Shown: piece after piece, positions 20,177-58,894 of the stretch | Layout: each line of letters starts with the position of its first letter | Position numbering within the stretch: the stretch's first letter is position 1 | Program-made: the position numbers and the translations under genes | Notes under the pieces: model-generated | Told to the model about the DNA's origin: nothing | Seen by the model: only the letters and a program-made list of their open reading frames with translations | Database searches by the model: none | IMG/VR virus record: IMGVR_UViG_3300001798_000005 | DNA length: 64,000 bases | Source: a virus | Taxonomy: Duplodnaviria > Heunggongvirae > Uroviricota > Caudoviricetes | Reading direction: 5' to 3' (one strand)

Positions 20177-20530
20177 TCAAGATTTCCTTTTCCTTTCTGA
20201 GTTCTCTTTTGCAGTCTTGGCCTTGTGGCAATCTAGGCAGAGTGTCTGCATGTTCTCCAGCCCCTTTGATCCTTGATCGATCAGCGGGATGATGTGATCA
20301 AGTTGCCATCTCGGATCATAAGCCCCACAGGCTGCACAGGTCCCCCGGTCGCGCTTAAAGATGATCGTTCGAGCATGGCTGGGCCATGCTTGAATTTTGT
20401 ATTCCTCGACACAAATAGGGTGCCACCCGGCTCGACGATTGATGGTCCCATTCTTGTAAATAATCTTTCCACACCATTTACAATACCCGGGTTTTACAGA
20501 TTTCTTTTTGGGTTTTCGGTGATCAGGCAT
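20177..20530 (-). CDS. HNH endonuclease
   Basis: CKWC...HPICV...CAAC..DHIIP...N...LC..CH. Confidence 0.65.
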   Translation of the reverse strand: MPDHRKPKKKSVKPGYCKWCGKIIYKNGTINRRAGWHPICVEEYKIQAWPSHARTIIFKRDRGTCAACGAYDPRWQLDHIIPLIDQGSKGLENMQTLCLDCHKAKTAKENSERKRKS

Positions 20531-30760: not shown

Positions 30761-33700
30761 GAGGCAATTCCCGGATTAAGTTGACCACCTTGACGGAGAT
30801 TTTCTTGAATTTGCTCCTGGATGAGTCCTTTCATGGTTTCATGAACGGCTTTGGCGACCTGATCCCCCATTGCTTTGTCCCTATTGGGATCTCCAGAGCC
30901 AGATCCTCCCTGAACGGTGACATTAATCTGAGGAGCAAAGACATTCCCTCTGCCAGAACCAACGGCCCTGACCCCCAGGGACCCGTCAGACATCCTCTTG
31001 AGGGGCATTATCGCTTCAGTGCCACGCTCGCCCATCAACCCGGTTTTTCCGCCGCCCATCGGGAACGCCGTTGCGCCACTGGTCAGTCCGCCCTGGGCGA
31101 AGGGGATAACGTTTCCATTGCGGAAGGCCCCACCGCTGGCGAAACCCGAGGGGGCCGCGATACTCCCAAGGGAGAGCGCCCCCGGCCCGGCACCCAGGAG
31201 GCCCCCGGCCCCGGTTGACACGCCAGCCACTCCACCGAATAACCCATTCAGTGAGGCGTAGATGGCTTTTTGAATCAAGGCCTGTAGGATCATTTTGAAT
31301 ATTTGTTTTGAAAGGTTGCCTAAGATGTCTGAAACCTTGGCTGAACCGGTGGCGATCTGATCAAAAGCGTTCACGAATGCATCCCCGAGGGACTTGGCCA
31401 ATTGGAGCATTTTCTCTTGTTTTTGAATTACGCCATCAAGAGATAGTTGAGAATTCTCGGTCTTGCGGGCATCCGCAAGGGCGGCAAGTCCACTAGTGGA
31501 ATTAAGATCATAGCCCTGATCGGCCAAAGACTTACGCCGGTTCTGTTCCCGCTGGGTCTCCTCATATGAGAAGAAGCTCATCTCGCCCGTAAAGGGATTT
31601 CGGGAAAGCCCCTGCTGGCGGGCTGAGATGAGGGCAAGATTATTTTCAATCGTGACCTGATTTTCCATTTGCCGATTAAGGTCTTCCCTGGCGAATTTCT
31701 GATCCGAAAGTGCTTTCGTGATATCCCGGATTGATTGCGCGTGGGCTGAATTCTCACTTATCCCGAGTCTAATGATCTCAGCATTTGCGCTATTGAGAGC
31801 CTCGGCGTCCCTCAGGGCATGGTTGCCCTTCAGCCGTGCCTCATAGAGGCCCTGCTCAACATCAATGGCTTTCTTTTGGGCATCAACATAATGTGCCACT
31901 TCATCCTCAAGTGATACCGCCTGGCCGCGCATCAGGGCGGAGGACAATAGCCCTCCTCTTTTGCTCTCGGGGCTGATGCCTTTGGCCTTGAGGGCGTTTT
32001 CGATTTCTTGTCTGTTTTTGGTTTCCCGAAGCCCAACAGTGCCGCCGGTCTGGAATGCCTCAAGACGAGCGGCAGCCTGTAAGGTCGCGTCCTGGGCGGC
32101 CTGAATGGCCGACACCTCCTCGGTGGCCCTACTGAGTTCTTTGGTTCGGAGAATCTGTTCCACCAGAGCTTCTGTCTGGGCCTTTGTGATCTTCAGATGG
32201 GCTTGTCTAACTTTGTCCTCAGCCTCTATGCGGTCTTTCATTTTTTGGGAAGCTAGATCCCCACCTTGGATTTGAGCATTCAGGAGCCTTTGGGCTTCGG
32301 CTTCCCTGGCGTTGGAGTCCTCGATGAATTGGCGGATCTTTTTGGCGTCGGCTGATTCTTTACCGGCTGCGCCGGGGAAAGATTTAATTTTATTATCACC
32401 CCCGAGGTCTGATTTAACCCCCCTCAGTGGGGTTTCCATTGCCGCAGCCAATTGAACTAAAGATCTCTTTCTGGCCTCACCTCGGGCTTTCCATTTATTG
32501 GATACGGCAGCCTCGGCAGAATCAAACGCGGCCTCTCCGAGGTTGAAGGCATCGCTCCCAAATGTCCCATTTTTAATACTCTCAAGGGTGAAGACAAATC
32601 GCTTCATCGCAATTCCACTAATGGTTATGCTGGTTGACAATCGGTCAAATAACCCTGACACCTCGGCAATGAAACCCGCCACCCCAAGGGTTAGCATTTT
32701 CCCCAGATAGGAAAGGAGCTGACTCATAGAGCCCCCCGTGAGATTCCCAATGGCTTTATCGAGCCTCATTACAGAATCCACGGCTTCTTGGAATATTTTC
32801 CCAAATGGCTCCCTGATGCGCTGTAGCCATTTATCCAGATCCGCAATGCTTTTCGATATCCCCTCCAGTCCCGCGCTCGCGAGCGCCGTGACGTGGAACA
32901 TTCTATTCAACGTATCGATCAATAGCAAGCTGGAATTTTGGACCTTGCCGAATGCTCTCTCAACTGAAGCTGGAAGATTTTTGAACTGCTCCTCAATTAA
33001 TTTTTCATTTTTCAAAATACCATTCAGGACCACATCAGAAGTTATCTTGCCGTCGGCGGCAGCCTTCTTGAATCTCCTGAATGCCTCTTCTGAAGTTTCC
33101 CCGGTTTTTCGGATCTGCTCACTTAACATGCGGGCAACTTTAGGCATTCCCTCCATGACTGAACGGAGTTCATCCCCCCGGAGGGTTCCAGAGGCCAGGC
33201 CTTGCGACATTTGGATCATGGCGTTCTTGATCTCTTCCGCTGTAGCGCCGGAGACAATACCGGCCTTGAGGAATGTTTCCTCAAACCGCAAGAGCTGATC
33301 CGTGGACGCGCCGATCGATTGAGCTGCGGGCGCTAACCGCGTGAAGGATTGAGCGACGCTTTGGATCGATATCCCTGTTTTGTCAGAAATCCCAATCAGG
33401 CGGGCCATGGTGCCGTCGAACTGGTCGAGATTGGGAAGAACGTTTTTAACCTTTGCTTGTAATTGATTAAACTCATCTGCAAGTGAAACGATTTTTAAAA
33501 GCCCAAGAGTTGCAATTAAACTCGTCAAAGCGCCAATGATGGCCTGGAATCCTCCCTGCATGGAAGAAAGTGTTGCGCTCATACCCTTTAGGCTTGAATT
33601 GCTTTTATTCTGTGCATCATTTAATCTCTTAAGCTGTTCCTCCAGCCTTTTTGCGGCAAGCTCTTGGCGCTTAATGGCATTTTCGGCCTTCATCTGCTCA

Positions 33701-33885
33701 GCAATCAGCTTTCTGGTTGAATTGGAATTTTTTTCAAAGGCAAGGACATTTCTCTCCCAGGCCCGCTGCGTCTTTTGGGTTTGTAGCTCAAGTTTCTGAC
33801 CAGCATCGGTCAGCTTTTTGAATTCTACCGTTGCCTTCTTGGCTGGCTCAGAATTAATGGTAACTTGTAAATTGGCGAGGTCCAT
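30757..33885 (-). CDS. tail tape measure protein
   Basis: 1042 aa coiled-coil-rich with Gly-rich C-terminus; position between GT and M. Confidence 0.8.
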   Translation of the reverse strand: MDLANLQVTINSEPAKKATVEFKKLTDAGQKLELQTQKTQRAWERNVLAFEKNSNSTRKLIAEQMKAENAIKRQELAAKRLEEQLKRLNDAQNKSNSSLKGMSATLSSMQGGFQAIIGALTSLIATLGLLKIVSLADEFNQLQAKVKNVLPNLDQFDGTMARLIGISDKTGISIQSVAQSFTRLAPAAQSIGASTDQLLRFEETFLKAGIVSGATAEEIKNAMIQMSQGLASGTLRGDELRSVMEGMPKVARMLSEQIRKTGETSEEAFRRFKKAAADGKITSDVVLNGILKNEKLIEEQFKNLPASVERAFGKVQNSSLLLIDTLNRMFHVTALASAGLEGISKSIADLDKWLQRIREPFGKIFQEAVDSVMRLDKAIGNLTGGSMSQLLSYLGKMLTLGVAGFIAEVSGLFDRLSTSITISGIAMKRFVFTLESIKNGTFGSDAFNLGEAAFDSAEAAVSNKWKARGEARKRSLVQLAAAMETPLRGVKSDLGGDNKIKSFPGAAGKESADAKKIRQFIEDSNAREAEAQRLLNAQIQGGDLASQKMKDRIEAEDKVRQAHLKITKAQTEALVEQILRTKELSRATEEVSAIQAAQDATLQAAARLEAFQTGGTVGLRETKNRQEIENALKAKGISPESKRGGLLSSALMRGQAVSLEDEVAHYVDAQKKAIDVEQGLYEARLKGNHALRDAEALNSANAEIIRLGISENSAHAQSIRDITKALSDQKFAREDLNRQMENQVTIENNLALISARQQGLSRNPFTGEMSFFSYEETQREQNRRKSLADQGYDLNSTSGLAALADARKTENSQLSLDGVIQKQEKMLQLAKSLGDAFVNAFDQIATGSAKVSDILGNLSKQIFKMILQALIQKAIYASLNGLFGGVAGVSTGAGGLLGAGPGALSLGSIAAPSGFASGGAFRNGNVIPFAQGGLTSGATAFPMGGGKTGLMGERGTEAIMPLKRMSDGSLGVRAVGSGRGNVFAPQINVTVQGGSGSGDPNRDKAMGDQVAKAVHETMKGLIQEQIQENLRQGGQLNPGIAS

Positions 33886-33886
33886 T

Positions 33887-34629
33887 TTACTTCTCTGTCA
33901 TGATTCGGATAAAACGATTATCAAGATCCCGAATGATCCGCAATTCCCACCGGTGGGGGTGGGTCAGGAAACATTCCCTCCATGCCATGATATCACTCCA
34001 ACTAATCGGCTGAGGACCCGACATAGAGTATTGGCGGCCCTCAGAGAGTTCCTCGAACCATTGAACGATATAAAACAACTCCCTGGGGGGATCTGGCATA
34101 TCGAGTTCCGGGACATCGATCCCTTGGGAGGCGACTTGCTCCAGATGATCCCTAACCGAACCCCCACCGTCTTGTGGCCTGGAGAGGCGGAAGAATGCTT
34201 CTGCCCATTCCAGCAACTCACTTATGAGGGATTGAAAAAATTTGAGCTTTCGGCAACAAAATCAGCTACCTGGCGACGAATCCAAGGGAATTCAGAAAAG
34301 AGTTTTGTCGCATTGGCAGCCGTGAAGGTTAAGGCTTCACCCGATACCGTGATATTTCGGAAGTCCACCACGCAAGCGGTAAGTTTAGCCAGTTCCTCTT
34401 TATCAAGCTCCTCAATGGTTACTTTATCGGCCTTCTGTTTAGCCCGCGCTTTATTGAGTCTCCGATTCAATAACTCTCGTTCTTTTTGAATAAACGGATC
34501 ACTGTCGGTCCCGACAACCGTTAAACCAATAGACTCCCCCGCCTCCGTCTTGAGGACTTCATCGGTTCCGGGATGACGCAGCTCCATGAACACCGGCTCA
34601 TTGGCGGTTGAAAATTGATTGAGATCCAT
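33887..34629 (-). CDS. gpGT-like chaperone fusion produced by programmed -1 frameshift at 34237..34243
   Basis: G-frame TCA AAT TTT TTC contains A_AAT_TTT; the -1 frame is open from there into ORF 33887..34216. Confidence 0.5.
34222..34629 (-). CDS. gpG-like tail assembly chaperone
   Basis: Position before tape measure; slippery heptamer near 3-prime end. Confidence 0.6.
   Translation of the reverse strand: MDLNQFSTANEPVFMELRHPGTDEVLKTEAGESIGLTVVGTDSDPFIQKERELLNRRLNKARAKQKADKVTIEELDKEELAKLTACVVDFRNITVSGEALTFTAANATKLFSEFPWIRRQVADFVAESSNFFNPS
34237..34243 (-). other. -1 ribosomal frameshift slippery heptamer AAATTTT
   Basis: Read directly. Confidence 0.5.
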
Positions 34630-34650
34630 TATGTGTGTCCCCTCTGTTGA

Positions 34651-35559
34651 TTATGATTTAACAACTTTAATCGTGGTGGCGTCGCTGGCATTATATAAGG
34701 CGTGGAAGGGCATCGTGATGATCCGGCTTTGTTCATTCGCCAGCGGGACGTCTCCACCTGTGTATTTGACAGTCCCCATTGTGAAGGTATAGGTGTTACC
34801 GGTTGTGGAATCCGTCACGGCGATCACAAGGGAGCTGGATGTTTCATTCAGGAATTTATTTAACATCGTCGCATCCTGATAATAGAGTTGCATAGAGCCG
34901 GTCACTTTAGCCCGACCATATTCGAGTTGTGGGGTCGTCGAGGATCCAATTACAAAAGTGGGCTGCAGGGAATTGTCAATCGTCATATCGAGTGAGGTCA
35001 CAATGGCAGAAGCTCCGCCGCCCTCAGTCAGGACAGCCGTGAAGGAATCAAAAGGTTCATTAGTCGAGGACGACGTAATGGTGGCATCAACAGAGGTTCC
35101 GCTCTGGGCCATATTTTTACCAATGAGGCCAAATGTCCCTTTGACGATTGCATTTGGATTTACTGACATTGAAAAAGTATTGACGGCGCAGCCGGTAAAG
35201 AGTCGATATTGGGCAATGTCGAGAGCCCGATCTTCAATGGAAAAATATTGAGGAGTCGTTCCAGCTTTCAGGACGCCAGCGGTGGTGAATTGGCCAAAGA
35301 AAGCGCTTTCGAGAAAGTCATCAAAATCATCAGCTCTGAGGTCGACCGCAATGTCACCTTGAACTTTCCGGTTCCCATGTCGGAGTAATGCGATCTGTCG
35401 GTCAGGTCTAATCTCGTCAGACTCGATCCCTTCCTTTATCAGGGACAGCGAATGGCTATTGATCGGCAGCGATAAAAATACCGGAGTCGCGGGAGTGGTC
35501 CCGAAGGTCGATTCCACCATGTAGGATAAGCCAGATCGGCTACCTTGTGCGAATGCCAT
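34651..35559 (-). CDS. major tail protein (gpV-like)
   Basis: 302 aa, position between U-like and G. Confidence 0.6.
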   Translation of the reverse strand: MAFAQGSRSGLSYMVESTFGTTPATPVFLSLPINSHSLSLIKEGIESDEIRPDRQIALLRHGNRKVQGDIAVDLRADDFDDFLESAFFGQFTTAGVLKAGTTPQYFSIEDRALDIAQYRLFTGCAVNTFSMSVNPNAIVKGTFGLIGKNMAQSGTSVDATITSSSTNEPFDSFTAVLTEGGGASAIVTSLDMTIDNSLQPTFVIGSSTTPQLEYGRAKVTGSMQLYYQDATMLNKFLNETSSSLVIAVTDSTTGNTYTFTMGTVKYTGGDVPLANEQSRIITMPFHALYNASDATTIKVVKS

Positions 35560-35609
35560 TTTTTATCCCTCAAATCTCAGGGGGGTTTCCCCACGTCACT
35601 AATATAATT

Positions 35610-36017
35610 TTAAACCCCGAATGCATACCACCCGATATAAACGGTCCGCATGTACCAATCAGGATCCTCTCCCGGCTGCGGTGCGGGTTCACAGTACGCG
35701 ATATGGACAGACTGACCGGATGCGGTCAGGATCGTGCCTTTCGGGAATGCGGTCCTGATGTTTCCCATCATCGTCTCAGCTGCCTGGGATCCCGCATTGG
35801 GGGGATAGAAGAGATCAAGGATCATCACGCCATCGGCGCGATCCGGTATCCCGACCCCCACGCCCGCCGTGCGGACCCGTGCGGTCATGACAGTACAGCT
35901 CAGCCATGGCGTCCCCGGCGTGGGTCGGTAAACGACATTTTCATATCTGATTGCCGGAACACTTGAGACGGTTGCCAACTGAGTCTCCAGAGCGGTGCGG
36001 ACCTGTAGGATCGTCAT
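35610..36017 (-). CDS. tail terminator (gpU-like)
   Basis: 135 aa, position. Confidence 0.5.
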   Translation of the reverse strand: MTILQVRTALETQLATVSSVPAIRYENVVYRPTPGTPWLSCTVMTARVRTAGVGVGIPDRADGVMILDLFYPPNAGSQAAETMMGNIRTAFPKGTILTASGQSVHIAYCEPAPQPGEDPDWYMRTVYIGWYAFGV

Positions 36018-36457
36018 AACTTGTTCAAGACCTCTTGCGCGATCTGTTGGGCCTCTGCGAGCGTGACAGCCACCATGCCCGCAGGGGCCTGCTGGGAGTG
36101 ACCCTTTTCAAGGGCCTGGATGTATGAGGCATTGTTGGCCAGGATGATGACATCGCCCATCTTGGCTTGGCCGATTGTGACCGTCAGGGCCGCAAAAGGT
36201 GTCGAGACACTCCCCGCCCCCCCGGTTTTCCCCTTATAGGTTTCCCATTGGGGCTGGTTGGGATGCCCCCCAAGATTGCCCAGGCTGGCCCACCAGGAGG
36301 CTCGGGAAAATCCAGTCTTCACTGGGTTACGGGTAATGATCCGTAGGGCTATCTCCTGAGAGACAGTTTTTAGAAACGCATCTGCTTTTTTCTCAACCTT
36401 ATTGAAAAATTTCGTCAGGTCTGCTGTAAAGGTCTGGGTCATGACTTCACCACACAC
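36014..36457 (-). CDS. tail completion / head-tail joining protein (gpZ / HK97 gp10-like)
   Basis: Position and size. Confidence 0.4.
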   Translation of the reverse strand: MCGEVMTQTFTADLTKFFNKVEKKADAFLKTVSQEIALRIITRNPVKTGFSRASWWASLGNLGGHPNQPQWETYKGKTGGAGSVSTPFAALTVTIGQAKMGDVIILANNASYIQALEKGHSQQAPAGMVAVTLAEAQQIAQEVLNKL

Positions 36458-36786
36458 ACATAAGCGATCACGGTCGTCCCCTCGGTGAGGGTCTGGACAT
36501 CCTCGATCGAATAACTGACGCTGCTCTTGATGATCAGATCATTGATCGTCGGCGCAACCGACAAGCCCTGGCCGGATATGATTATTTTTTTCTGGCCCGC
36601 CTGGGCGAGGCCCTTCCCTTTAGCGTAATCTGAAAATTCAATCAACTTGGCCGTGACGGTATAGTCTGTATTTGTTGGGGTGCTGGGGCCGGTTCCGGCA
36701 GTATAGGTTCGATTGCCCAATTTTCTCAACGTCAAGCTCTCCCCCTTGAGGAGGAGCAATCTATAGACCGGATACGTCAGATCCAA
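36439..36786 (-). CDS. head-tail adaptor (gpFII-like)
   Basis: Position and size. Confidence 0.35.
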   Translation of the reverse strand: MDLTYPVYRLLLLKGESLTLRKLGNRTYTAGTGPSTPTNTDYTVTAKLIEFSDYAKGKGLAQAGQKKIIISGQGLSVAPTINDLIIKSSVSYSIEDVQTLTEGTTVIAYVCVVKS

Positions 36787-37445
36787 TAGGCCCCCCAGGG
36801 GTCACCATCAAAGAGCTGATGGGGTTTTGGGTCGCCGTGGAAATAAACGATCCGTGCGTCTGCAGTTGGGCCGTTCTGGTCCCGAATGTCAGCCTTGTAG
36901 GACAGAATCTGACCAGGGAATTCGTCCTGAAGGATGATGGTTTCCGAGATCGGAATATTGCCATCCAGCCAGATCATATCAGAGACGCAATTCATCATCT
37001 GAAAGCGGTTTTTGTTCACATCTGATTGAAATTTTTCGTAAATCTCTTGACCCTTCTCGACTGAAAAGCTCATCACCCCACTGGCCCGCCGGGGGAAGTA
37101 AGGATCCCGGATCATCGCAAAGTCAGGGCGAAATTCAGCAATGTGATCAATGTCGCCAGTGATAATGGTATCCAGGCCCATAAAGAGCCGATGCCCGCCT
37201 CCGTAGGACCCCCGGAGGGCTTCCAGGAGGCAGAACATATTTCTGAAATCATTTTCAAACCGAACGGGACGGATATCCTCCTTGAAGTCATAATCCTGAT
37301 CGACCAGACAGACAAACTCAAAATCATCACAAAAGCGATTAATCCCCCGGTAGAGCTTATCGGCCCAAGTGGCGTCAAAGATATGGCGGGAATGTTGCGG
37401 GACGTCTTGGCCCTGATATAAGGCGGTCACGATGGTAACTGACAT
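36777..37445 (-). CDS. GT-A fold (GT8-like) glycosyltransferase-like protein
   Basis: IVTALY N-terminus, DXD-like LVDQD/DGD, C-terminal IVYFHGDPKPHQ resembling the GT8 H..G..KPW motif. Confidence 0.4.
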   Translation of the reverse strand: MSVTIVTALYQGQDVPQHSRHIFDATWADKLYRGINRFCDDFEFVCLVDQDYDFKEDIRPVRFENDFRNMFCLLEALRGSYGGGHRLFMGLDTIITGDIDHIAEFRPDFAMIRDPYFPRRASGVMSFSVEKGQEIYEKFQSDVNKNRFQMMNCVSDMIWLDGNIPISETIILQDEFPGQILSYKADIRDQNGPTADARIVYFHGDPKPHQLFDGDPWGAYWI

Positions 37446-38065
37446 AATTCCTCCAGGGTGATTTTCTGAAAAGCTTCAACCCGACTCTCCGGGGAGGCGT
37501 TCATGACTATTATCCCAGCCCTTTCGAGAGGCTCTTTCGTCGCCATGAAGTCTTCAGCCCATCCCTTATAGAGTCTATCCTGCATGGGGGAATCCCAATG
37601 ATAGCCCCCGTGCCAGTGCGATTGCTCCCCGATCCCCATATCGATCCCGAGGAGGATAATCCTTGCCGCGCCTTTAGAGTATGTGATATTGAGCGCTCCA
37701 TGACCGGTATTCCGACCCGCGACATCAGGGGGTTCCGTCAGACCCTCGGCGCGGGATCGCCGGAGATAATGAGCACCTTCGACCTTTTCCCCATCACATC
37801 CATGCCCGGGGTCATTCGCGGGGCTAATGATCAGGAACCGATCGCCCGGAAAGGCAATCAATTCTTTCTTCATGTTGTTGATGAAATTATGGTCCATCGA
37901 AACAATGCCATCACACTTGGCGGCTGGCATGAGCCCCGAGGCGTTACAGCCAAGGCGATAACCTGGCGGCAATCGATCGAAGTCAAAGCCCCTCAGGGAG
38001 TCTCCGCCGCCGATGATAAAAACTGTTTGGCCTTCCCAGGACCTATCCAGAACCGAATAACTCAT
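37427..38065 (-). CDS. DUF115 (Maf/MptE-like) putative glycosyltransferase
   Basis: FIIGGGDSL...GCNASG...DGIVSMD pattern recalled from DUF115/motility-accessory-factor proteins; start at internal Met. Confidence 0.35.
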   Translation of the reverse strand: MSYSVLDRSWEGQTVFIIGGGDSLRGFDFDRLPPGYRLGCNASGLMPAAKCDGIVSMDHNFINNMKKELIAFPGDRFLIISPANDPGHGCDGEKVEGAHYLRRSRAEGLTEPPDVAGRNTGHGALNITYSKGAARIILLGIDMGIGEQSHWHGGYHWDSPMQDRLYKGWAEDFMATKEPLERAGIIVMNASPESRVEAFQKITLEELCQLPS

Positions 38066-38498
38066 CTGCCTGTTCTCCACTGGGCGGATTGTGGAATTTA
38101 TCTCGACTGAAGGCCGCCGCCGGTCGGTCTGTGTCTTCCCTGACGTTCTCGATTTCGGAAATCGACACCCCTCCGACGTATGGCGACCCAAGGCCACCAT
38201 AGAGAGAGTTTTGCGCCGCTTGGGTCGTCAGGATGCCAATCAGGCCCCTGTAGTGTTCATATTGCTGATTGGCCGATACCCTGACGGATTCGATCGCGGT
38301 ATCGCACAACCGAGAATATTTAGCTGCCAATGATTGAGCGCAAAATATCGCCGCTGTATACTTGTCAGAAGTGGCCGCAATGGCGAAATTGATCTCAGCG
38401 TCTTGGAGCTGTTGATCATTGGTATCAGTGTCACCGATCAGAAACCGAACCGCCGCCAACGTGGAGGCTGCTGGGTCTCCGGCGTAGGTCCAGGTCAT
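38043..38498 (-). CDS. head-tail connector (gp6-like)
   Basis: Size and position upstream of adaptor genes. Confidence 0.4.
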   Translation of the reverse strand: MTWTYAGDPAASTLAAVRFLIGDTDTNDQQLQDAEINFAIAATSDKYTAAIFCAQSLAAKYSRLCDTAIESVRVSANQQYEHYRGLIGILTTQAAQNSLYGGLGSPYVGGVSISEIENVREDTDRPAAAFSRDKFHNPPSGEQADELFGSG

Positions 38499-38500
38499 CG

Positions 38501-39040
38501 TTACAACTCGACGTAATGAATGTAAGCGTATCCGGCGATCGCGGTCGCGGCCCCGGAGGCCACAGAACCCGTGATGGCTTGAGTGGAGGTGAAGAGCTTA
38601 ATGGTCTTGCCATTGGAGCCCGCATTGGCGATGTTGGTGAAAATCCCTGAAGAGACTCCAGTGGAGGCGGCTACGTTGGCCCCATCGATGAGCGAATCAC
38701 TCAAGGTGGTCTCGTCAGTCGCCACTCCTACATCAACCGTACAGGCGGCAGAGGTCAGGGTAGTGATATTCAGGACCACCAGGTGGACATATCCGGCCAC
38801 GCCGGGCGTGAAGGCAAAAACACCGCCAGCGGTCCCGACTGCCGCCAAGGCGACTTTCTTAACCTTAATGGGTCGTTTGGTCCCCGTGCTGGGCATCGCT
38901 AAATCGGCAGCCGTAACGGTTCCGGCACTCGTGATCCCTTCGGTGATGGTCAAAAGGCTAGAAGATGACCGGGCAACGGTTTTGAGGCATTCCATTATTT
39001 TCTGGACCGCATCAGATCCGGGTACTCTGTAACCGGGCAT
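38501..39040 (-). CDS. hypothetical virion protein (Thr/Ala/Gly-rich)
   Basis: ORF between capsid and connector genes. Confidence 0.4.
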   Translation of the reverse strand: MPGYRVPGSDAVQKIMECLKTVARSSSSLLTITEGITSAGTVTAADLAMPSTGTKRPIKVKKVALAAVGTAGGVFAFTPGVAGYVHLVVLNITTLTSAACTVDVGVATDETTLSDSLIDGANVAASTGVSSGIFTNIANAGSNGKTIKLFTSTQAITGSVASGAATAIAGYAYIHYVEL

Positions 39041-39321
39041 TATTTGACCTCTTTCTTTTCAGCCGACTTTTTGACAGGTTTTTCAAGTTTAACTTCAGGA
39101 GCCCCGATCAGCTCTGGTTCTGGTTCAGAAACCAACGCCGGGATATCGGGGTGATCGATGAATCGGTGATCCCACAGTTGGGTCATCCGGCGGGTATTGA
39201 CCGCCAATTGTCTCCAGGGGAAATCTTGCCCGATCCCCATCGGGTGCCCGTTGGCCGTAAAGGCCTTGCGGACCACGAATGTTTTCTTTAAATCAAAATC
39301 TATTCTGGCGCGAGGGCGCAT
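39040..39321 (-). CDS. hypothetical protein (start at internal Met; exact coordinate plus or minus 1)
   Basis: Longer ORF overlaps capsid gene 3-prime end; ends in Lys-rich tail. Confidence 0.3.
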   Translation of the reverse strand: MRPRARIDFDLKKTFVVRKAFTANGHPMGIGQDFPWRQLAVNTRRMTQLWDHRFIDHPDIPALVSEPEPELIGAPEVKLEKPVKKSAEKKEVK

Positions 39322-39367
39322 AAGACCTCCAAGGGGGAGAAGCGGGGAACAGAGTTCCCCGCTTGCT

Positions 39368-40354
39368 TTAAGCCACGATACTGGTAAAGAAATATCCCAG
39401 GTTTGCAGAAATGAGTTTTTGATCAAAAGCCATTTCACCTTCAACGCGGTCAGAGGCTTCTTTCTCAATTCTGAATTTTTTAATCCGAAGCCCATTAGAA
39501 CCGGCGCCGAACATACCCTTCCAGGAGAAGGTATAACCACCACTGGGGGTCATCAGGCCCGGACGAGGGGCGCTGTAGACCAAGAGGGCAGTTTTGCCGG
39601 TGATGAAGGCATGACTGTTGGTCACGGTTTCAGCCGCCGAGTTGTAGATCGCCGAACCGACAAGGATTTCGTCAAGTTCAAGGATCTGGGCAACAGCTTC
39701 CTTGGAGACCATTGCGGGTCTTCCGGCGGTTTGGCCGTATTTGACCCGATCGATGATGTCGGGGTGATCAACCAATTTGTCCCAGACTTCTTGACCGAGC
39801 ACCAATTTATTAGGGCGGAATCCGGTGGATTTGTGAACCACAGTCGCTCCCGCCCGAACGTCACTCAAGGGATCGGAGTTAGTGTAGTCACTCCACTGGT
39901 AGAGTTGACCAGTCGTCGGGGAAGCGGCACCGGTTTTGTCAGTCGTCCAGACGGAAGTCGTCATGAAAGAAGAGACGAATTTGGCTTCCTTCCTGATCAG
40001 CAATTTGGTCGTGACAAACTCAGTAGCTTCCATGTCGAGGTTCAACGGCACATCAGCGTTAGCGCGGATCTGATCCGGCACGTCTTTGTGCCAAGCCCAG
40101 ACGTTGGCGAAATAGCTGGGGGTATTGTCGATCCGGTAATCACCTCCGGCAGATTCAGCCCCAGGGGCCCGTACACGAGCTTCATCCCGGTTGAAATCCC
40201 CACGGTCGTATGTGAAAAAACGATCGGATTGTTTGTCTACAGGGATATTAGGGAAGACCTTATCGGCGATAAAGGCATCCTGGTTTTGCAAAAACGCGAC
40301 ACTGATCATTGTCAGCGGGGCGTTTACGTGGACATCTGATGCGGTAGGGTTCAT
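39368..40354 (-). CDS. major capsid protein (lambda gpE-like)
   Basis: 328 aa, pattern and order (D-like gene immediately upstream). Confidence 0.6.
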   Translation of the reverse strand: MNPTASDVHVNAPLTMISVAFLQNQDAFIADKVFPNIPVDKQSDRFFTYDRGDFNRDEARVRAPGAESAGGDYRIDNTPSYFANVWAWHKDVPDQIRANADVPLNLDMEATEFVTTKLLIRKEAKFVSSFMTTSVWTTDKTGAASPTTGQLYQWSDYTNSDPLSDVRAGATVVHKSTGFRPNKLVLGQEVWDKLVDHPDIIDRVKYGQTAGRPAMVSKEAVAQILELDEILVGSAIYNSAAETVTNSHAFITGKTALLVYSAPRPGLMTPSGGYTFSWKGMFGAGSNGLRIKKFRIEKEASDRVEGEMAFDQKLISANLGYFFTSIVA

Positions 40355-40379
40355 TCCCTAAATCTCCTCTTACTTCTAA

Positions 40380-40760
40380 TTACGCGGTGGCGGATGCGGC
40401 TTTGGCGCGGGGGTGGAACAAGATGGCGATCACGTTACCGCTTGCGCCAGTCTCCAGAGCCTCACCGAGGATCACGTCATTGGTCGCACAAGCGACCGCT
40501 TGACCATTAGTGTCACTCGCGACGGGGTTACCTTTAGTGATCGTGCCCGCGCAGGAGACCTTGGTGATTCCGCCGACACAAACCGAGGCCGCCCGACCGG
40601 CAGCCGCAGGAGTGTTTTGCAAAACCCCAATAGCGAATAGGCCATCACCGGCGGGATCGACTTGACCGTCAGACGAGACGTCAACAAAGTAATATTGCTT
40701 GGCTGACAGATCTGCACCCGCTTCAAAGTCAACGATTTGCATATTTTGCGAAAAAGACAT
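40380..40760 (-). CDS. head decoration protein (gpD-like)
   Basis: 126 aa, Gly/Ala-rich beta protein immediately upstream of capsid gene. Confidence 0.55.
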   Translation of the reverse strand: MSFSQNMQIVDFEAGADLSAKQYYFVDVSSDGQVDPAGDGLFAIGVLQNTPAAAGRAASVCVGGITKVSCAGTITKGNPVASDTNGQAVACATNDVILGEALETGASGNVIAILFHPRAKAASATA

Positions 40761-40782
40761 TCTCTTACTCTCTCCTCAGCTC

Positions 40783-41559
40783 TTAAACGACAGGATTCAA
40801 TTTGTCGTAAAGTTTCACACCCTCATCTGAAAACAGCGCTTTCGTGTAAGCTTGCTCAAAAGTTAGGCTTGGGTTTTTATCAACAATTTCTTTCGCCATA
40901 GCGGTTAGGCGGTCCTGAGGGGCTTTTTTCTCAACAGAAGCCTTGCCGACTTCCTTAAAGGCAGAACCCAGGGACTCATTGGCGGATTTCAAAACCTGAA
41001 GGGCGTATTCTTTATTATCGCCATCGAGGCCAGCCAAGGCTTTCAACAGTTGAGCCTTTTGGACTTCATCCCCAGGGAGGTTGGGGATTTCGGCATTTGC
41101 CTGTTTGGCAAATGCATTCAATTCCAGGACTTCCTGTTGGGACTTCAGGGTTTTGGCCATTTCAAGATTTTGTTTCACAACAGCTTCAAGCTGTTTCTGA
41201 ATGGTTTCCGAAAGCCCCTCTTTGGCAACTTCAGCGGCCTTGGCCTCAGCGGCCTCCTTGTCGGCGATCGCTTTAGCGACTTCCTGGGCGGCATCGGCTT
41301 GAGATTTGGCGAGTTTGTCCTCAGCGGTTTTTTGATCCGCCTGGGCCTGCTCAAGAGCTTTTTGCATTTCTTCCAAGGTCATTTTAGGGACTCCCTCATT
41401 AAATTCTGCATCTGTTTTAATTTCAGATTCCTCGATCATAGCATCCGAATCACACGATCCGTTTTTTGTCAACAGCATGTTGGCAAATTGATTTGCTCCA
41501 ATGGTGACATTTGATACTTCAGTGAGGATCAGCTTGTGACATTTCTTTTTAGCTTTCAT
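40783..41559 (-). CDS. scaffolding protein
   Basis: Ala/Glu/Lys-rich coiled coil between protease and decoration genes. Confidence 0.55.
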   Translation of the reverse strand: MKAKKKCHKLILTEVSNVTIGANQFANMLLTKNGSCDSDAMIEESEIKTDAEFNEGVPKMTLEEMQKALEQAQADQKTAEDKLAKSQADAAQEVAKAIADKEAAEAKAAEVAKEGLSETIQKQLEAVVKQNLEMAKTLKSQQEVLELNAFAKQANAEIPNLPGDEVQKAQLLKALAGLDGDNKEYALQVLKSANESLGSAFKEVGKASVEKKAPQDRLTAMAKEIVDKNPSLTFEQAYTKALFSDEGVKLYDKLNPVV

Positions 41560-42562
41560 CTAATTTTTCCCATACGGCATTGCCGCCTATTGAAAACATT
41601 TTGAGGTTGCCATCCTTGATGGATTTCCAAACCTCTGAATCGTCAATCTTCACACCAATCAGCCAGCCGACCTTTTTTAGATCAATCCCTAAAACCTTCT
41701 GAAGCTCTTTAGTGAACATCATCGATTCAACAATGGTTCCGGTGGATTCACCGACGTGCATTGTTTTATTGGATCTGGAGTCCTGCATGAATTCCACAAC
41801 CGCATCAGCCAAAACGTCTTCCGGGATGATGTCACCATGTTGGTCGATGACTTCTTTCCCGTCTTTCTCCACCACAGAGGCCCACCCATAGACGAGCTGT
41901 TTGTCAGTAGCGCCGGTCTTGATGATCTCCCCCTCCATCTTGAGGGTATCGGCCCAGTCGGTCCGGTAGGGCATCACTTCTTCCGCCTCGAAGGAAAGCT
42001 CAAAAGTCGGGAGCTTTACTTTAGAAAGATCAAAATTAAGTCCCACATTATAAGAGACCGTCACATGTGGCTCCCGGTATTCCGCCCAATCGAAATCCAT
42101 CCCGAGGGCAATTGCCTTCGTGTTTTGTTCATCTACCTCATGGCAGGGGAAGCTCAAAACCAAGGCCTCACGGTTTGGCCCAACGAACTTCAGAGAGTAA
42201 GGGGGGTATTCGTCATTTAACCCAATCTGTACCCGGATAGGGTTAACGAGCGGTTCATACCCGGCAAAACCATCAGGGGACCTGATGACGGTACAGTGAA
42301 GGAGTTCAGCCGGGACCGGGTTGGGGATCTTATTCTCTTCCGCCCATCTGGAAAGATTCACCTCAGTGGTGGCGTCGGGTTTCATCCATGAATAGATGCC
42401 GGCCGATTCCTTCCAGGTCCGTTCAGGAGATAAAAAACCCTGCTTCTCGACGGCGATCCAAGCGGCAAAGGATCGGTGGATCTCCCCCTGGTTGGGGGCA
42501 GCCAGGTAAGCCTTGTAGAAGGCTTCACGGGCTGGCATGTTGGGGATTTGGTTAAAGTCCAT
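41549..42562 (-). CDS. fusion of N-terminal 2H phosphoesterase (LigT/CPDase-like) domain and C-terminal XkdF-like (S78) prohead protease domain
   Basis: Two H-x-T-x motifs (LHCTVI, PHVTVS) about 79 aa apart; C-terminus LVYGWASVVEKDG...HGDIIPED...HVGESTG resembles XkdF-type proteins (from memory). Confidence 0.45.
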   Translation of the reverse strand: MDFNQIPNMPAREAFYKAYLAAPNQGEIHRSFAAWIAVEKQGFLSPERTWKESAGIYSWMKPDATTEVNLSRWAEENKIPNPVPAELLHCTVIRSPDGFAGYEPLVNPIRVQIGLNDEYPPYSLKFVGPNREALVLSFPCHEVDEQNTKAIALGMDFDWAEYREPHVTVSYNVGLNFDLSKVKLPTFELSFEAEEVMPYRTDWADTLKMEGEIIKTGATDKQLVYGWASVVEKDGKEVIDQHGDIIPEDVLADAVVEFMQDSRSNKTMHVGESTGTIVESMMFTKELQKVLGIDLKKVGWLIGVKIDDSEVWKSIKDGNLKMFSIGGNAVWEKLDES

Positions 42563-44968: not shown

Positions 44969-46474
44969 CTATCTCGCGTATGGGTTGTAATGGGTCAGAC
45001 CACTCTGGAGATCATTGTCCCGAAGCGCCCTAGGGGCCTGCTGTTCATTCCCGGTCGTGATAGGGCCACAGGTGATCGCTTTTGGCTGACGGGACCATTT
45101 CATGATACGGCTCAAATATTGCGACATCGCGTCAACGTCATCATCATGAGTCACGTTGGGGAAATTGCACCAGTTCGCCACCGTGGCCTTTACCCATGGC
45201 TTGTTCCTGGGGACAAAGACCTTTCCGGCCTCAAAGTACGTTGAGACAAAATTGACCCGTTCGGTCTTGCTCATCCCCATGTTCTTGCCGGGCATCATGG
45301 CGATCACCGGGATGGCGGAATCGGCCCGCATGTCCTGAATGAGCTGTTGCCCTGAGGCCTTATCCTCAATGAGGGCCTCCAGGGCGGGGTATTGTCTCCA
45401 TTGGTCCCTGAAGGTCTTCTTAAGCTCCGGGTATGGCATCTTACGCTTAACCTGCTCAACCAGATAATGCCCATTGTCGCACTCGGCCCAGAGCTGACCG
45501 ACTGAATAGTCATTCTCCTGTTTTTCCTTGATCGCGGTGTCCCAGGACCACCGGAAAGCCTTCACGGGCGGAAGCTCATCCCAGTATTGGATCCATTCCG
45601 GTAAGAGGATACCCTTGCCGGGGCTGACATTCCAGTTTCCCCCCAGGAGTTGCTCTCGGTCGATTCTCGGCAGGGCCATCAGGTTAGCGAGATAGCCGGG
45701 ATCTTTTTCCATCAGGATCTTATTGTCATAAATGGAGGCCGCGATAAAGGTGAAGGACTTGGGAAGCGTTGGAAGTTCTGGGGTTGAGGGATACTTTTCC
45801 AAAAGTTCTTCAGCAGTGTCGCCCCAGAGGAATTCGTCTTCTCTGACGATGAACCACCGGATTTTACCCGACCGCTCTGGAATCGGCAGGCCATCTTCGC
45901 CGATCCACCAATCAATCAACTCCCTGACAAATGAATCCGAATCAGGGTTGCAGGTGGCCCGGATGTAAGGTTTGACCCCACAGGTGGAGCGATTCCGAGA
46001 AAACATATAGAAGAATTGCCCCCGGGTGAAGTGGGTCAACTCATCGAAACCCATCATGGGCAGCTCAGACCCCTGATAGGACAGCTTGTCCTTCTCGTGC
46101 TCCATATGGGCGAAGGTCACGCTTGCCCCGCTGGGGAAAGTCCACTGAAGCTTGGAGATCAAGGGCTTCCCGCCCAGTTGGGGAAACATGGCTTGGCTCT
46201 GATCCCAGAGTGAACCTTGTTTTTTGATCTGTGGAGAGGTCCTGCGGAATATGACAGCGCCGAAGTTGGGGTTATCGGTGTTGCGAAATGACTCAGCGAG
46301 AAGGCTCCAGGATTTTCCACCCCCCGCCGCCCCGCCATAAATGGCTACGTCAGCGGATGTTGACAAGAATAACTCCTGCGGGCCTGGCTGAGGGGACATC
46401 TCTATAGTCAAAATAGCCTCACTTGTTGAGCCTCTGAGATAAGGTTTTTCCAGCTTTAGGCTTCTGTTGTTCAA
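44969..46474 (-). CDS. terminase large subunit
   Basis: Walker A YGGAAGGGKS, Walker B GFDELTH, C-terminal nuclease-like region. Confidence 0.8.
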   Translation of the reverse strand: MNNRSLKLEKPYLRGSTSEAILTIEMSPQPGPQELFLSTSADVAIYGGAAGGGKSWSLLAESFRNTDNPNFGAVIFRRTSPQIKKQGSLWDQSQAMFPQLGGKPLISKLQWTFPSGASVTFAHMEHEKDKLSYQGSELPMMGFDELTHFTRGQFFYMFSRNRSTCGVKPYIRATCNPDSDSFVRELIDWWIGEDGLPIPERSGKIRWFIVREDEFLWGDTAEELLEKYPSTPELPTLPKSFTFIAASIYDNKILMEKDPGYLANLMALPRIDREQLLGGNWNVSPGKGILLPEWIQYWDELPPVKAFRWSWDTAIKEKQENDYSVGQLWAECDNGHYLVEQVKRKMPYPELKKTFRDQWRQYPALEALIEDKASGQQLIQDMRADSAIPVIAMMPGKNMGMSKTERVNFVSTYFEAGKVFVPRNKPWVKATVANWCNFPNVTHDDDVDAMSQYLSRIMKWSRQPKAITCGPITTGNEQQAPRALRDNDLQSGLTHYNPYAR

Positions 46475-52012: not shown

Positions 52013-52362
52013 TGCCTTTTTACGAGTTACCCGGCCCAAAGGTTGTTGAAAAGTACACTGAATATCTTCGTATAGCAAAGGCAGACCCAAATGGTGAATG
52101 GAATTCAAATGAATATTGGATGAGTTGTGGCTTTAAGGCCGCCTGCACAATGTTTTTTGGCACTGTGTACGCTGGCTCTCTTATAATGCAGTCCGATAGT
52201 TTGCTTGAGGAGGAGACAGCCCAGGCCGTCCAGACCTTCCCTGAGGCCTACGAGGGCGCCAAGGCCAGACAGCCACTAGTGGGCGAGATTCTGCAACTTT
52301 CCCCGATTCCGGGAAAGTTGGATGTGCCACGCTTCTCCAGCACAGATGAGCCGGGGGTGTAG
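52013..52362 (+). CDS. hypothetical protein
   Basis: ORF. Confidence 0.4.
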
Positions 52363-52366
52363 GCGG

Positions 52367-52936
52367 ATGAAGGTACTTGTTGGCTGCGAATTCAGTGGGA
52401 TTGTGCGGGACGCCTTTCTGATGGCTGGTCACGAGGCTGTATCCTGCGACCTTCTTCCCACGGAAAGCCCAGGGCCTCACATTCAAGGTAATATTCTGGA
52501 TCATTTGGATGACGGGTGGGACCTAGGCATTTTCCACCCGCCTTGCACCTACTTATCGAATAGCGGGGTCCGCTGGCTGCATTCCGACCCGAAGCGGTGG
52601 GAACTTATGGCCGATGCGGCTCATTTTTTCAACACGATCTTGTCCGCTAATATCCCCTCGATCTGTGTCGAAAACCCGATCCAACATAAATACGCGCGGG
52701 CGCTTATCCCATTGTATCAACAGATCATACACCCGTGGCAGTACGGACACCCGGAATCAAAGACGACTTGTCTTTGGCTTAAGAACCTACACCCCTTAGT
52801 GACAACAAGAATCATGGAGGAGCGGGAACAAAGGCTTTGGAAGCTGCCGCCCAGCCTAACCCGCTGGAAGAAGCGCAGTGTTACTTATGCCGGAATCGCT
52901 CAGGCGATGGCAGAGCAATGGAGCAAGTATGCATAA
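52367..52936 (+). CDS. short DNA (cytosine-5)-methyltransferase-like protein lacking an obvious target-recognition domain
   Basis: Motif I-like GCEFSG, motif IV PPC (FHPPCTYLS), motif VI ENP (ICVENP); only about 190 aa. Confidence 0.4.
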   Translation: MKVLVGCEFSGIVRDAFLMAGHEAVSCDLLPTESPGPHIQGNILDHLDDGWDLGIFHPPCTYLSNSGVRWLHSDPKRWELMADAAHFFNTILSANIPSICVENPIQHKYARALIPLYQQIIHPWQYGHPESKTTCLWLKNLHPLVTTRIMEEREQRLWKLPPSLTRWKKRSVTYAGIAQAMAEQWSKYA

Positions 52937-58886: not shown

Positions 58887-58894
58887 GTGTGTCT

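Follow-up and report, generated by a model that had tools for sequence, protein, structure and literature searches.

A variable pair of Maf/GT42-like and GT8-like transferase genes between the head and tail genes of a phage: a candidate virion glycosylation cassette

Two overlapping transferase genes lie between the head-to-tail adaptor gene and the head closure gene of a Caudoviricetes virus (IMG/VR record IMGVR_UViG_3300001798_000005), of which a stretch of 64,000 nucleotides, hereafter the window, was analyzed. On balance, we think it probable that they form a modular cassette, expressed late, for the glycosylation of virion proteins with nucleotide sugars of the host. ORF1 and ORF2 are real, strongly constrained genes, and their identities as a GT8-like glycosyltransferase and a Maf/GT42-like transferase are well supported. 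Virion proteins as the target are what we infer from the placement of such genes in late or morphogenesis operons of several unrelated lineages, from the swapping of partner enzymes, and from the glycoproteins of the XacN1 virion. The cassette is carried by an apparently virulent siphophage with a genome of roughly 60 kb. The genes of the region are listed from the head block to the tail tube:

40380-40760, minus strand: cement/decoration protein gene, upstream head gene
39368-40354, minus strand: major capsid protein (MCP) gene, upstream head gene
39040-39342, minus strand: 100-aa gene in the upstream head block
38501-39040, minus strand: p179, Ser/Thr-rich orphan of 179 aa in the upstream head block, adjoining the adaptor gene
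38043-38498, minus strand: head-to-tail adaptor gene, 151 aa, phrog_1732; upstream border of the variable slot
37427-38065, minus strand: ORF2, 212 aa; single-domain Maf/GT42-like (PF01973/DUF115-type) transferase
36777-37445, minus strand: ORF1, 222 aa; GT-A-fold, GT8-like glycosyltransferase
36439-36786, minus strand: head closure Hc1 gene, phrog_161 (7.7e-15); downstream border of the variable slot
36014-36457, minus strand: tail completion/Neck1 gene, phrog_169
35610-36017, minus strand: tail terminator gene, PF13554
34651-35559, minus strand: tail tube gene, PF18906; product with 23% Ser+Thr

Gene order and constraint in the neck operon

An earlier note, made from the sequence alone, had described the pair as wedged between connector and joining genes, and the profile matches bear this out, with the adaptor upstream and Hc1, Neck1, terminator, and tube downstream. 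Among solved virion head-to-tail proteins, the adaptor profile (A3) matched the neck protein of Sf14 (9c39_C, E = 1.4e-13), and it also matched gp72 of Pakpunavirus P7-1, annotated as 'Head to Tail protein' (E = 2.4e-8). Family matches in the upstream head block (38501-40760) were to PF09956, phrog_1005, and PF03864. The comparison with insert-free relatives that the note had proposed was run and confirms its reading of the pair as an insert: in three sister phages (L016, L022, and L025), the slot between adaptor and Hc1 is empty of glycosyltransferase genes, and Hc1 follows straight after the adaptor gene.

The overlaps taken as operon-like in the same note are found at all three junctions (23 nt between adaptor and ORF2, 19 nt between ORF2 and ORF1, and 10 nt between ORF1 and the head closure gene), and Shine-Dalgarno-like GGAG and GGAGG sequences stand upstream of the starts of both ORF1 and ORF2. 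Promoter- and terminator-like sites within 33500-41800, a region that includes the pair, were no more common than in shuffled sequence. The open frame of ORF2 extends over 37427-38200, and a conserved ATG at 38065 gives the 212-aa product (MSYSV...), in agreement with the gene call in an 89%-identical relative (L008). Orthologs occur in the same order on two independent metagenomic contigs, at 86%–91% identity for ORF1 and 70%–89% for ORF2, and gene order is conserved in L007 and L008. Measured against L008, dN/dS was 0.04 for ORF1 and 0.05 for ORF2, compared with 0.06 for the MCP and 0.03 for the tail tube; across the cassette genes, it spans 0.04-0.10, on par with the capsid and tube genes. 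When the 6.5-kb region was searched at the nucleotide level against phage isolates, no match was returned. Pseudomonas RSP/KPP23 and Roseobacter RDJL Phi1 came closest among the isolates, with an MCP identity of only about 50%, and were rejected as comparators, their neck and tail modules being different and the glycosyltransferase genes absent; metagenomic relatives were therefore used in their place.

Identities of the two enzymes

All Pfam matches of ORF1 and ORF2 fell below threshold, and neither matched NCBIfam. ORF1 matched phrog_1962 'glycosyltransferase' in PHROGs (1.6e-33), and its family profile matched glycogenin-1 (1.8e-6) and the Skp1 alpha-galactosyltransferase (2e-4). The structure prediction suggested for it gave a glycosyltransferase fold (AF2 pLDDT 94.1; GT-A, Rossmann-like), and a Foldseek search with the model was led by glycogenin, the GT6 enzyme BoGT6a, and GTA/GTB (E = 6e-9 to 5e-8), with glycogenin-1 as the best match (E = 5.7e-9, TMq 0.62). 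The proposed GT-A/GT8-like nature of ORF1 is thus one on which profile matches and fold agree. Its YFHGDPKPH stretch, noticed earlier as H..GDPKPH, lines up with the GT8 motif HFxGxxKPW: the nearly invariant Y201-F-H203-G-x-x-K207-P-H209 stands opposite VVHFLGQTKPW, a motif that in GT8 contributes the third metal-ligand His and a phosphate-binding Lys. The DXD motif that had also been claimed did not hold up, because the 'DQD' at residues 49-51 lies elsewhere in the fold, with only D49 conserved. At the DXD position itself, which in GT8 ligates Mn2+ and the diphosphate of UDP, the profile alignment places G90-L91-D92 of ORF1 opposite D-A-D of glycogenin, and among 50 family members, G90 is nearly invariant and L91 invariant.

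ORF1 shares with glycogenin and GT8 the GT-A fold (TM about 0.6), and its profile match to glycogenin takes in the C-terminal (Y/H)FxGxxKP(H/W) motif. It differs not only in the G-L-D triplet but also in that the metal-ligand His of GT8 (His211 in glycogenin) aligns with Tyr201, H203 lying two residues further on, and in that the DGGDQG catalytic loop of glycogenin is an insertion relative to the ORF1 family. Lacking the first DXD Asp and carrying Tyr in place of the metal-ligand His, ORF1 may differ in its chemistry from GT8; judged from these differences, it may work without a metal, as BoGT6a does, or with another set of ligands. It is presumably a retaining enzyme. Glycogenin acts on a protein side chain.

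For ORF2, the suggested kinship to DUF115/Maf-type transferases stands, with Maf as the best structural match (184 of 212 residues aligned) and sialyltransferases as the best sequence matches. Cst-II was the best match in the PDB profile search (E = 2.3e-4), and Cst (1ro8) ranked first in Foldseek (E = 1.5e-4). The IIGGGDSL and GCNAS pattern that had prompted the suggestion aligns with IAGNGPSL and FRCNQ of Cst-II. In terms of the GT42 motifs, G20-G-G-D-S24 corresponds to the N-terminal, CMP-binding GNGPS, N41 to N31, D58 to N51, N119-T-G to TSG, and G140-I-D142 to GID. The two proteins are alike in a series of aligned pairs (IAGNGPSL/IIGGGDSL, CNQ/CNA, TSG/NTG, and GIDFY/GIDMG) at an overall identity of about 15%. 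The HMM alignment stops before the catalytic base His188 of Cst-II, and the candidate catalytic residues H150 and H152 of ORF2 are not invariant, being N and Y in P0099 and P0100. Against PF01973, ORF2 scored 14.5 bits (gathering cut-off 34.6); since its homologs P0094-P0098 have precomputed matches to this family, the kinship is real but distant. The central sialyltransferase-like catalytic fold of Maf is present in ORF2, and relative to Maf (PF01973/MAF_flag10; 5mu5, Magnetospirillum magneticum), ORF2 is this domain alone (212 versus about 630 aa), whereas the flanking N- and C-terminal substrate-binding domains are missing. Its donor is predicted to be a CMP-activated sugar. No flagellar, flagellin-linked, or CMP-Pse/Leg (NulO) synthesis genes were found in the window.

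The fold of ORF2 is also common to the pyrophosphokinases MptE and TPK. One or both proteins could have a role other than building a virion glycan, with ORF2 as a nucleotide-binding or pyrophosphokinase-type enzyme, or with the pair acting on a small molecule or on a cytoplasmic protein of the host, for instance as a moron that counters host defense. We consider this improbable: the Maf and sialyltransferase matches of ORF2 speak against it, and the recurrent pairing of the Maf-like family with GT8-like, sulfo-, methyl-, and acetyltransferases points to glycan assembly.

Recurrence of the pair and exchange of its partners

Sister phages carry different gene sets at the slot. The Maf-like gene is alone in L036 and L060, accompanied by a sulfotransferase gene (PF13469, 8.9e-11) in L015 and by an FkbM Methyltransf_21 gene in L030, and joined by a sulfotransferase-like and two GT8-like genes in L011 and L012. 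All partner enzymes are glycan-tailoring ones, namely sulfotransferase, TylF and FkbM O-methyltransferases, and hexapeptide acetyltransferase. This swapping of sugar-decorating enzymes suggests that a variable glycan may cover the phage's own particle, and the Maf-like enzyme, as the constant member of the slot, is probably the initiating one.

Enzymes of these kinds are found in unrelated prophages and in PAJU2, XacN1, and P1, mostly inside morphogenesis operons. In PAJU2, the Maf-like gp10, gp11, and a methyltransferase lie between Hc1 and Neck1. Maf-like, LbH acetyltransferase, and GT8-like genes are located between a portal-associated gene and the adaptor gene in a Mesorhizobium prophage, and between MuF-like and protease genes in Henriciella prophages. 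At seven of 12 GT8-like loci in bacterial genomes, a Maf-like gene lies no more than about 1.5 kb away. In P1, PmgQ is a homolog of ORF1 (27.6% identity, E = 1e-12; HMM 4e-35), and PmgO and PmgP are homologs of ORF2 (HMM 1.6e-24 and 1.2e-9, respectively). As here, pmgO, pmgP, and pmgQ, named for a 'putative morphogenetic function', share one operon; it has an annotated late promoter upstream and tail genes adjoining. Unlike here, this is a separate operon that includes the Ppp phosphatase and lies outside the neck block. We know of no report of glycosylation in P1 virions. CRISPRi and knockout screens showed the P1 pmg homologs to be non-essential (PMC10695390). XacN1 encodes homologs of both ORF1 and ORF2, and at least two glycoproteins have been detected in its virion (PMC5852040).

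In IMG/VR, where the Maf-like family has at least 531 loci, most of its genes are of a T4-like type beside clamp-loader and replication genes, so not all members of the family are associated with structural genes. GT8-like genes, too, can adjoin the terminase gene or lie among those for replication (L003, L004). A GT8-like gene within 8 kb of the Maf-like gene was present at none of the best 80 of the at least 531 IMG/VR loci. The pair is therefore recurrent but not obligatory, occurring in this lineage, P1, XacN1, L001/L002, and the seven bacterial-genome loci.

Targets of the enzymes and comparison with known systems

The pair probably shares a transcript, and is coupled in translation, with the genes for head-tail joining, the Neck1, terminator, and tube genes following downstream on it, and the enzymes would thus be made as virion proteins accumulate. 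By analogy with the action of Maf on flagellin, the substrate of the Maf-like enzyme would be Ser/Thr of a virion protein exposed at the surface, to which it would link an ulosonic or nonulosonic acid (Kdo, Pse, Leg, or Neu type) supplied in CMP-activated form, and the GT8-like enzyme would add an alpha-linked hexose from a UDP-sugar onto that glycan or at a second site. The host would provide the sugar donors, given that no sugar-nucleotide synthesis genes were found among the window ORFs scanned. Swaps of tailoring enzymes between relatives would diversify the particle-exposed glycan, and with it would change how sticky or stable the particle is, or how host or environmental factors recognize it. 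Candidate acceptors are the tail tube, p179, the cement protein, and loops of the MCP. With 23% Ser+Thr, p179 had no match among families, isolated phages, or PDB entries; as it has no homolog in the phage collection or the PDB, it was rejected as a member of a known decoration family, and because it is confined to the closest relatives, it cannot be a lineage-wide acceptor. In MCP and tube alignments that compared carriers of the cassette with relatives lacking it, no Ser/Thr-rich extension or insertion tracked the cassette.

Several observations count against a virion target. They include the Maf-like loci among replication genes, the non-essential P1 genes, and the lack of Ser/Thr tracking, as well as the atypical DXD of ORF1, the fold that ORF2 has in common with pyrophosphokinases, and the GT8-like phage enzymes that act on DNA glycans.

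If the target were the host envelope, ORF1 and ORF2 would act late in infection on LPS core, O-antigen, capsule, or flagellin, with receptor masking, sparing of progeny from debris and infected cells, or exclusion of competitor phages as the benefit. The LPS-core transferases WaaJ, WaaO, and LgtC belong to GT8, Maf enzymes act on flagellin, and Cst-II, to which ORF2 is closest in sequence, has a lipooligosaccharide sugar as the acceptor that it sialylates. Moreover, PHROGs places the GT8-like family of ORF1 in the category 'moron, auxiliary metabolic gene and host takeover', and in P1, whose receptor is the LPS core, the homologous operon has a C1-controlled operator besides its late promoter. 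We nonetheless hold such a role to be unlikely. A search for transmembrane segments in ORF1 and ORF2 found none, so both proteins are soluble; a flippase, GtrA/B-type, or polymerase partner is absent; the genes sit repeatedly within head/neck blocks rather than in lysogenic-conversion or early regions; and an envelope change minutes before lysis would be of limited value. No integrase or lysogeny module was found, with the integrase scan covering all ORFs of at least 250 aa (two of them without a family match), which argues against lysogenic conversion in particular.

Glycosylation of replicated phage DNA against restriction, comparable to the T-even and 5hmC glycan pathways, is very unlikely, as the window revealed no TET/5mYOX dioxygenase, dCMP/dUMP hydroxymethylase, or thymidylate-synthase homolog, and no 5hmC/5hmU pathway domain in the ORFs scanned against Pfam and PHROGs (all but a few small ones), P1 has homologs of both enzymes and ordinary, restrictable DNA, we know of no Maf/GT42-type enzyme that acts on DNA, the cassette lies in the neck operon away from DNA-metabolism genes, and the enzymes that stand beside them in relatives (a sulfotransferase, FkbM, and an LbH acetyltransferase) are of kinds usual for glycans on proteins or lipids. 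What speaks for it is that both families occur among replication genes in T4-like contigs, that genes for a dNMP kinase, a 5'-deoxynucleotidase, and three DNA-methyltransferase-like proteins are present in the window, and that the GT8-like GT-A enzymes GT14I and GT43I add secondary sugars to 5hmC-linked glycans of phage DNA (preprint 10.1101/2023.12.21.572611).

Returning to virion glycosylation, a broader and decidedly more tentative proposal is that a glycan locus, hypervariable and O-antigen-like, is built around the single-domain Maf-like enzyme in head/neck operons of many phages of Gram-negative bacteria, P1 with PmgO/P/Q included. There, it would attach a host ulosonic or nonulosonic acid (e.g., Kdo or pseudaminic acid) directly to virion proteins, for elaboration by GT8-like, sulfo-, methyl-, and acetyltransferase partners, and the resulting acidic, sometimes sulfated glycans would diversify under selection. 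If such enzymes do glycosylate virions in phages of Gram-negative hosts, this would give a first function to pmgO, pmgP, and pmgQ of P1 and would define a variable surface-glycan locus with possible effects on how stable and adhesive therapeutic phages are, on their host range, and on their recognition by the immune system, while providing compact (about 210 aa) protein-glycosylating enzymes for engineering. Should the target instead be the host envelope or DNA, the locus would still represent an undescribed use of a Maf-type enzyme.

To our knowledge, phage-encoded virion glycosylation has been experimentally proven in mycobacteriophages only, where it shields particles from antibodies. Like the phage described here, mycobacteriophages (Che8 gp110, Corndog gp36-38, Myrna) carry phage-encoded glycosyltransferase genes inside the virion structural operon, with Corndog gp36-38 directly upstream of the MCP (major head) gene, and in both cases, soluble enzymes would draw on host nucleotide sugars, with methyltransferase-type partners in some phages. 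According to PMC12363180 and PMC12619734, which cite Freeman 2023, the structural-operon glycosyltransferases of mycobacteriophages glycosylate capsid and tail-tube proteins. The enzyme families differ, being Maf/GT42-like and GT8-like here. In a homology comparison with positions 18000-42000 of the Corndog record, which take in gp37 and gp38 in full and the final 222 nt of gp36, the HMMs of our two families (A1 and A2) found nothing at E <= 1. The donors also differ, with UDP- or GDP-sugars there and a predicted CMP-sugar for ORF2, and so do the hosts, relatives of this phage infecting Gram-negative bacteria. Glycosylation is proven in the mycobacteriophage systems and inferred from genes in this phage. 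The locus suggests that an unrelated set of enzymes, a Maf/GT42-like and a GT8-like one with exchangeable sulfo-, methyl-, and acetyltransferases, plays a mycobacteriophage-like role in phages of Gram-negative hosts.

A gene pair in the neck region of the morphogenesis operon

Bases 1-3985 of the window are 100% identical to bases 60016-64000. The phage genome is therefore 60,015 bp long and the window runs about 4 kb beyond its end; the assembly behind it is circular, circularly permuted or terminally redundant. The features of the first 4 kb all occur twice. ORF positions and family matches define a long morphogenesis operon on the minus strand.

Genes of the morphogenesis operon, in operon order
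44969-46474, minus strand: large terminase
then, minus strand: Mu-type portal, MuF-like protein, prohead protease, scaffold and cement protein, in that order
39368-40354, minus strand: major capsid protein (MCP)
between the MCP and p179 genes, minus strand: 100-aa gene
38501-39040, minus strand: p179, a 179-aa orphan
38043-38498, minus strand: 151-aa head-to-tail adaptor
37427-38065, minus strand: ORF2, Maf/GT42-like
36777-37445, minus strand: ORF1, GT8-like
36439-36786, minus strand: head closure protein Hc1
then, minus strand: tail completion/Neck1, tail terminator, tail tube, chaperone, tape measure and distal tail genes, in that order

The adaptor was assigned using a profile of the 151-aa protein and 11 relatives, which matched neck proteins from virions of known structure: 9c39_C of Sf14 (1.4e-13) and gp72, the "Head to Tail protein" of Pakpunavirus P7-1 (2.4e-8). 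Consecutive genes overlap (adaptor/ORF2 by 23 nt, ORF2/ORF1 by 19 nt, ORF1/Hc1 by 10 nt), a Shine-Dalgarno-like motif stands at the start of both ORF1 and ORF2, and promoter-like and terminator-like sites in the region scanned (33500-41800) did not exceed their frequency in shuffled sequence. Judging from their conservation, ORF1 and ORF2 are real genes: two independent contigs (L007 and L008) carry orthologs in matching gene order, at amino-acid identities of 86-91% for ORF1 and 70-89% for ORF2, and dN/dS against L008 (0.04 for ORF1, 0.05 for ORF2) is indistinguishable from that of the capsid (0.06), adaptor (0.06) and tube (0.03) genes. Their G+C content is that of the flanks, and membrane segments are absent from both.

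Elsewhere in the operon, the product of the prohead protease gene (41549-42562, minus strand) is a fusion of two domains: residues 55-205 form an N-terminal Acb1 anti-CBASS domain (PF23474; 67 bits, cut-off 27) and residues 213-330 a serine protease domain of S78/XkdF type. This fusion, also found in L008, joins a counter-defense phosphodiesterase to a virion maturation protease.

Two transferase-fold enzymes at a variable slot

Profile matches support both enzyme assignments of the earlier note, which took ORF1 as GT8-like and ORF2 as Maf-type. ORF1 matches PHROG 1962 ("glycosyltransferase," 1.6e-33), and its family profile (50 sequences) matches glycogenin-1 of CAZy family GT8 (1.8e-6) and Skp1 alpha-galactosyltransferase (2e-4). 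In Foldseek, its confident AlphaFold2 model (pLDDT 94.1) comes closest to glycogenin and to the GT6 enzymes BoGT6a, GTA and GTB (E 6e-9 to 5e-8, TM ~0.6). The GT8 motif HFxGxxKPW has its aligned counterpart in the nearly invariant Y201-F-H-G-x-x-K-P-H209, with Tyr201 falling at a glycogenin ligand His. The DXD proposed in the note is D49-Q-D51, but alignment places the catalytic DXD position at G90-L91-D92, of which G90 is nearly invariant and L91 and D92 are invariant. ORF1 is thus GT8-like by fold and part of its active site, and is not classed as a canonical GT8 member because one defining feature of that family is missing.

ORF2 matches PHROG 4603 ("alpha-2,3-sialyltransferase," 9e-21) and, weakly, PF01973, which its remoter homologs carry outright. 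Its profile also matches Campylobacter Cst-II of GT42 (2.3e-4), with the motif pairs (ORF2/Cst-II) GGGDS/GNGPS, CNA/CNQ, D58/N51, NTG/TSG and GID/GID. On these matches ORF2 is a stand-alone Maf/GT42 catalytic domain, unlike bacterial Maf proteins, which have flanking domains.

Relatives were fetched via the adaptor protein and a Maf-like profile and mapped with the window's structural proteins; their capsid, adaptor and tube proteins are ~35-55% identical across all. In L016, L022 and L025 the adaptor-Hc1 slot is empty and the two genes directly abut. It holds a Maf-like gene alone in L036 and L060; Maf-like and sulfotransferase (PF13469, 8.9e-11) genes in L015; Maf-like, 108-aa and FkbM-type methyltransferase genes in L030; a Maf-like gene, a sulfotransferase-like gene, a 310-aa unknown and two GT8-like genes in L011 and L012; and the Maf-like/GT8-like pair in L007, L008 and the window itself. 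What stays constant in the slot is therefore the Maf-like gene, and its partners are interchangeable. In L033 and L090, a Maf-like gene, or a second copy, lies on the opposite side of the adaptor gene; two Maf-like paralogs flank that gene in L033 (3653-6780), the second being 322 aa with an N-terminal extension. The two-gene insertion read in the earlier note is borne out by the empty slots, and its coordinates (36777-38065) bound exactly two genes, with the adaptor gene on one side and head-closure and tail-joining genes on the other.

Predicted virion glycosylation and its alternatives

Two constrained, soluble, transferase-fold enzymes are thus encoded in operon position among neck genes, at a single slot polymorphic for cassette presence and for partners, all of glycan-tailoring enzyme types. 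The pair very probably forms a functional glycan-building cassette, and we lean toward the prediction that it glycosylates virion proteins. Maf transfers sugar onto flagellin; on that model, the Maf-like enzyme would initiate by attaching a ulosonic or nonulosonic acid, drawn from a CMP-activated donor, to a virion protein at Ser/Thr, and the GT8-like enzyme would lengthen the glycan using UDP-hexose. Both would be made late, alongside virion proteins, donor sugars would come from the host, and partner swapping would vary the exposed glycan. No sugar-nucleotide synthesis genes were found among the window's scanned ORFs.

Putative acceptors include the tail tube and p179 (each 23% Ser+Thr), the cement protein and MCP loops; alignments of relatives with and without the cassette revealed no MCP or tube feature tracking with its presence. 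Rich in Ser, Thr, Ala and Gly, p179 has no Pfam, PHROG, PDB or isolated-phage homolog, is present only in the two closest relatives (L007 and L008), and could be a head fiber, a decoration protein or a glycosylation target.

GT8 and GT42 precedents act on LPS and LOS, but it is unlikely that the pair alters the host envelope or masks a receptor, as both proteins are soluble, export partners are absent, no lysogeny module was found in the window's scanned ORFs, and the genes are embedded in head and neck blocks. A non-glycan or non-virion role, in which the pair could be a counter-defense moron, is improbable as well: ORF2 does resemble pyrophosphokinases, yet its top matches are Maf and sialyltransferases, and glycan-tailoring partners recur. 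Glycosylation of phage DNA is very improbable, since no hydroxymethyl-pyrimidine pathway was found in the window's scanned ORFs, and we know of none in P1 and of no Maf-type enzyme acting on DNA, although phage GT8-like enzymes do extend glycans linked to 5hmC.

The last of these activities is described in a preprint (10.1101/2023.12.21.572611). The window carries three DNA-methyltransferase-like genes (18401-19051, minus; 52322-52936, plus; 58242-58898, minus), of MT-A70, phrog_757 and ParB-like/phrog_498 types, together with a dNMP kinase (10134-10766), an NT5C deoxynucleotidase (20523-21107) and an RNA ligase (17662-18408). The methyltransferase-like and nucleotide genes suggest that DNA is heavily methylated and the nucleotide pool manipulated; the scanned ORFs showed no hydroxymethylase or TET-type enzyme.

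Related gene sets in other phages and prophages

In Pseudomonas phage PAJU2, Maf-like gp10, an unknown gene and a methyltransferase sit between Hc1 and the next neck gene. Among bacterial genomes, where such loci are mostly alphaproteobacterial prophages, a Maf-like gene lies within ~1.5 kb of the GT8-like gene at 7 of 12 GT8-like loci. The Mesorhizobium prophage order is portal, portal-associated gene, Maf-like, hexapeptide acetyltransferase, GT8-like and head-tail adaptor, and Henriciella prophages hold the same trio between MuF-like and prohead-protease genes. The trio, with its hexapeptide-repeat acetyltransferase (phrog_5353), spans 4481-6621 in the Mesorhizobium locus L117 and 4885-6609 in the Henriciella loci L115/L116, and its insertion point in the head module differs between the lineages.

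The association with morphogenesis modules is not universal. The commonest type among the at least 531 Maf-like loci in IMG/VR adjoins clamp-loader genes in T4-like phages and lacks a nearby GT8-like partner, and GT8-like genes elsewhere lie beside a terminase gene or among replication genes. The T4-like contig L004 (5608-8744 and 16173-16744) has a GT8-like gene near a 2OG-Fe(II) oxygenase (PF13640) and two DruA-domain (Druantia-like) genes, a hydroxylase and GT pairing reminiscent of hydroxy-amino-acid glycosylation.

Virion glycosylation by GTs encoded within the structural operon has a precedent in mycobacteriophages, as described in two reports (PMC12363180, PMC12619734); profiles of ORF1 and ORF2 found no homolog (E <= 1) in the stretch of the Corndog GT region that spans the last 222 nt of gp36 and all of gp37 and gp38. 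Jumbo phage XacN1 (L029, 2936-5558) encodes Maf-like ORF375, ORF374 and then ORF373, a TylF-type O-methyltransferase fused to a GT8-like domain, all annotated as hypothetical. The study that detected at least two glycoproteins in the XacN1 virion credits them to two other GT genes, ORF328 and ORF334 (PMC5852040).

Phage P1 encodes PmgO and PmgP (Maf-like) and PmgQ (GT8-like) in a single operon adjoining tail genes, with an annotated late promoter upstream; the three genes are non-essential and their function is not known (PMC10695390). The window has genes for a Ser/Thr metallophosphatase of NinI/lambda type (56156-56884, plus) and for another phosphoesterase (54472-55131, plus). The homologous phosphatase gene of P1, ppp, lies between pmgP and pmgQ, and its position hints at a possible functional link between phosphatase and transferases.

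PHROGs and RefSeq already label both gene families glycosyltransferase, and actinobacteriophages are established examples of virion glycosylation, so the bare observation is unsurprising. Three things are new: a variable cassette, embedded among morphogenesis genes in phages with Gram-negative hosts, whose constant core is a stand-alone Maf-type domain; sulfotransferases among the partners of that domain; and the membership of P1 pmgO/P/Q in the same toolkit as ORF1 and ORF2, which provides a direct experimental handle.
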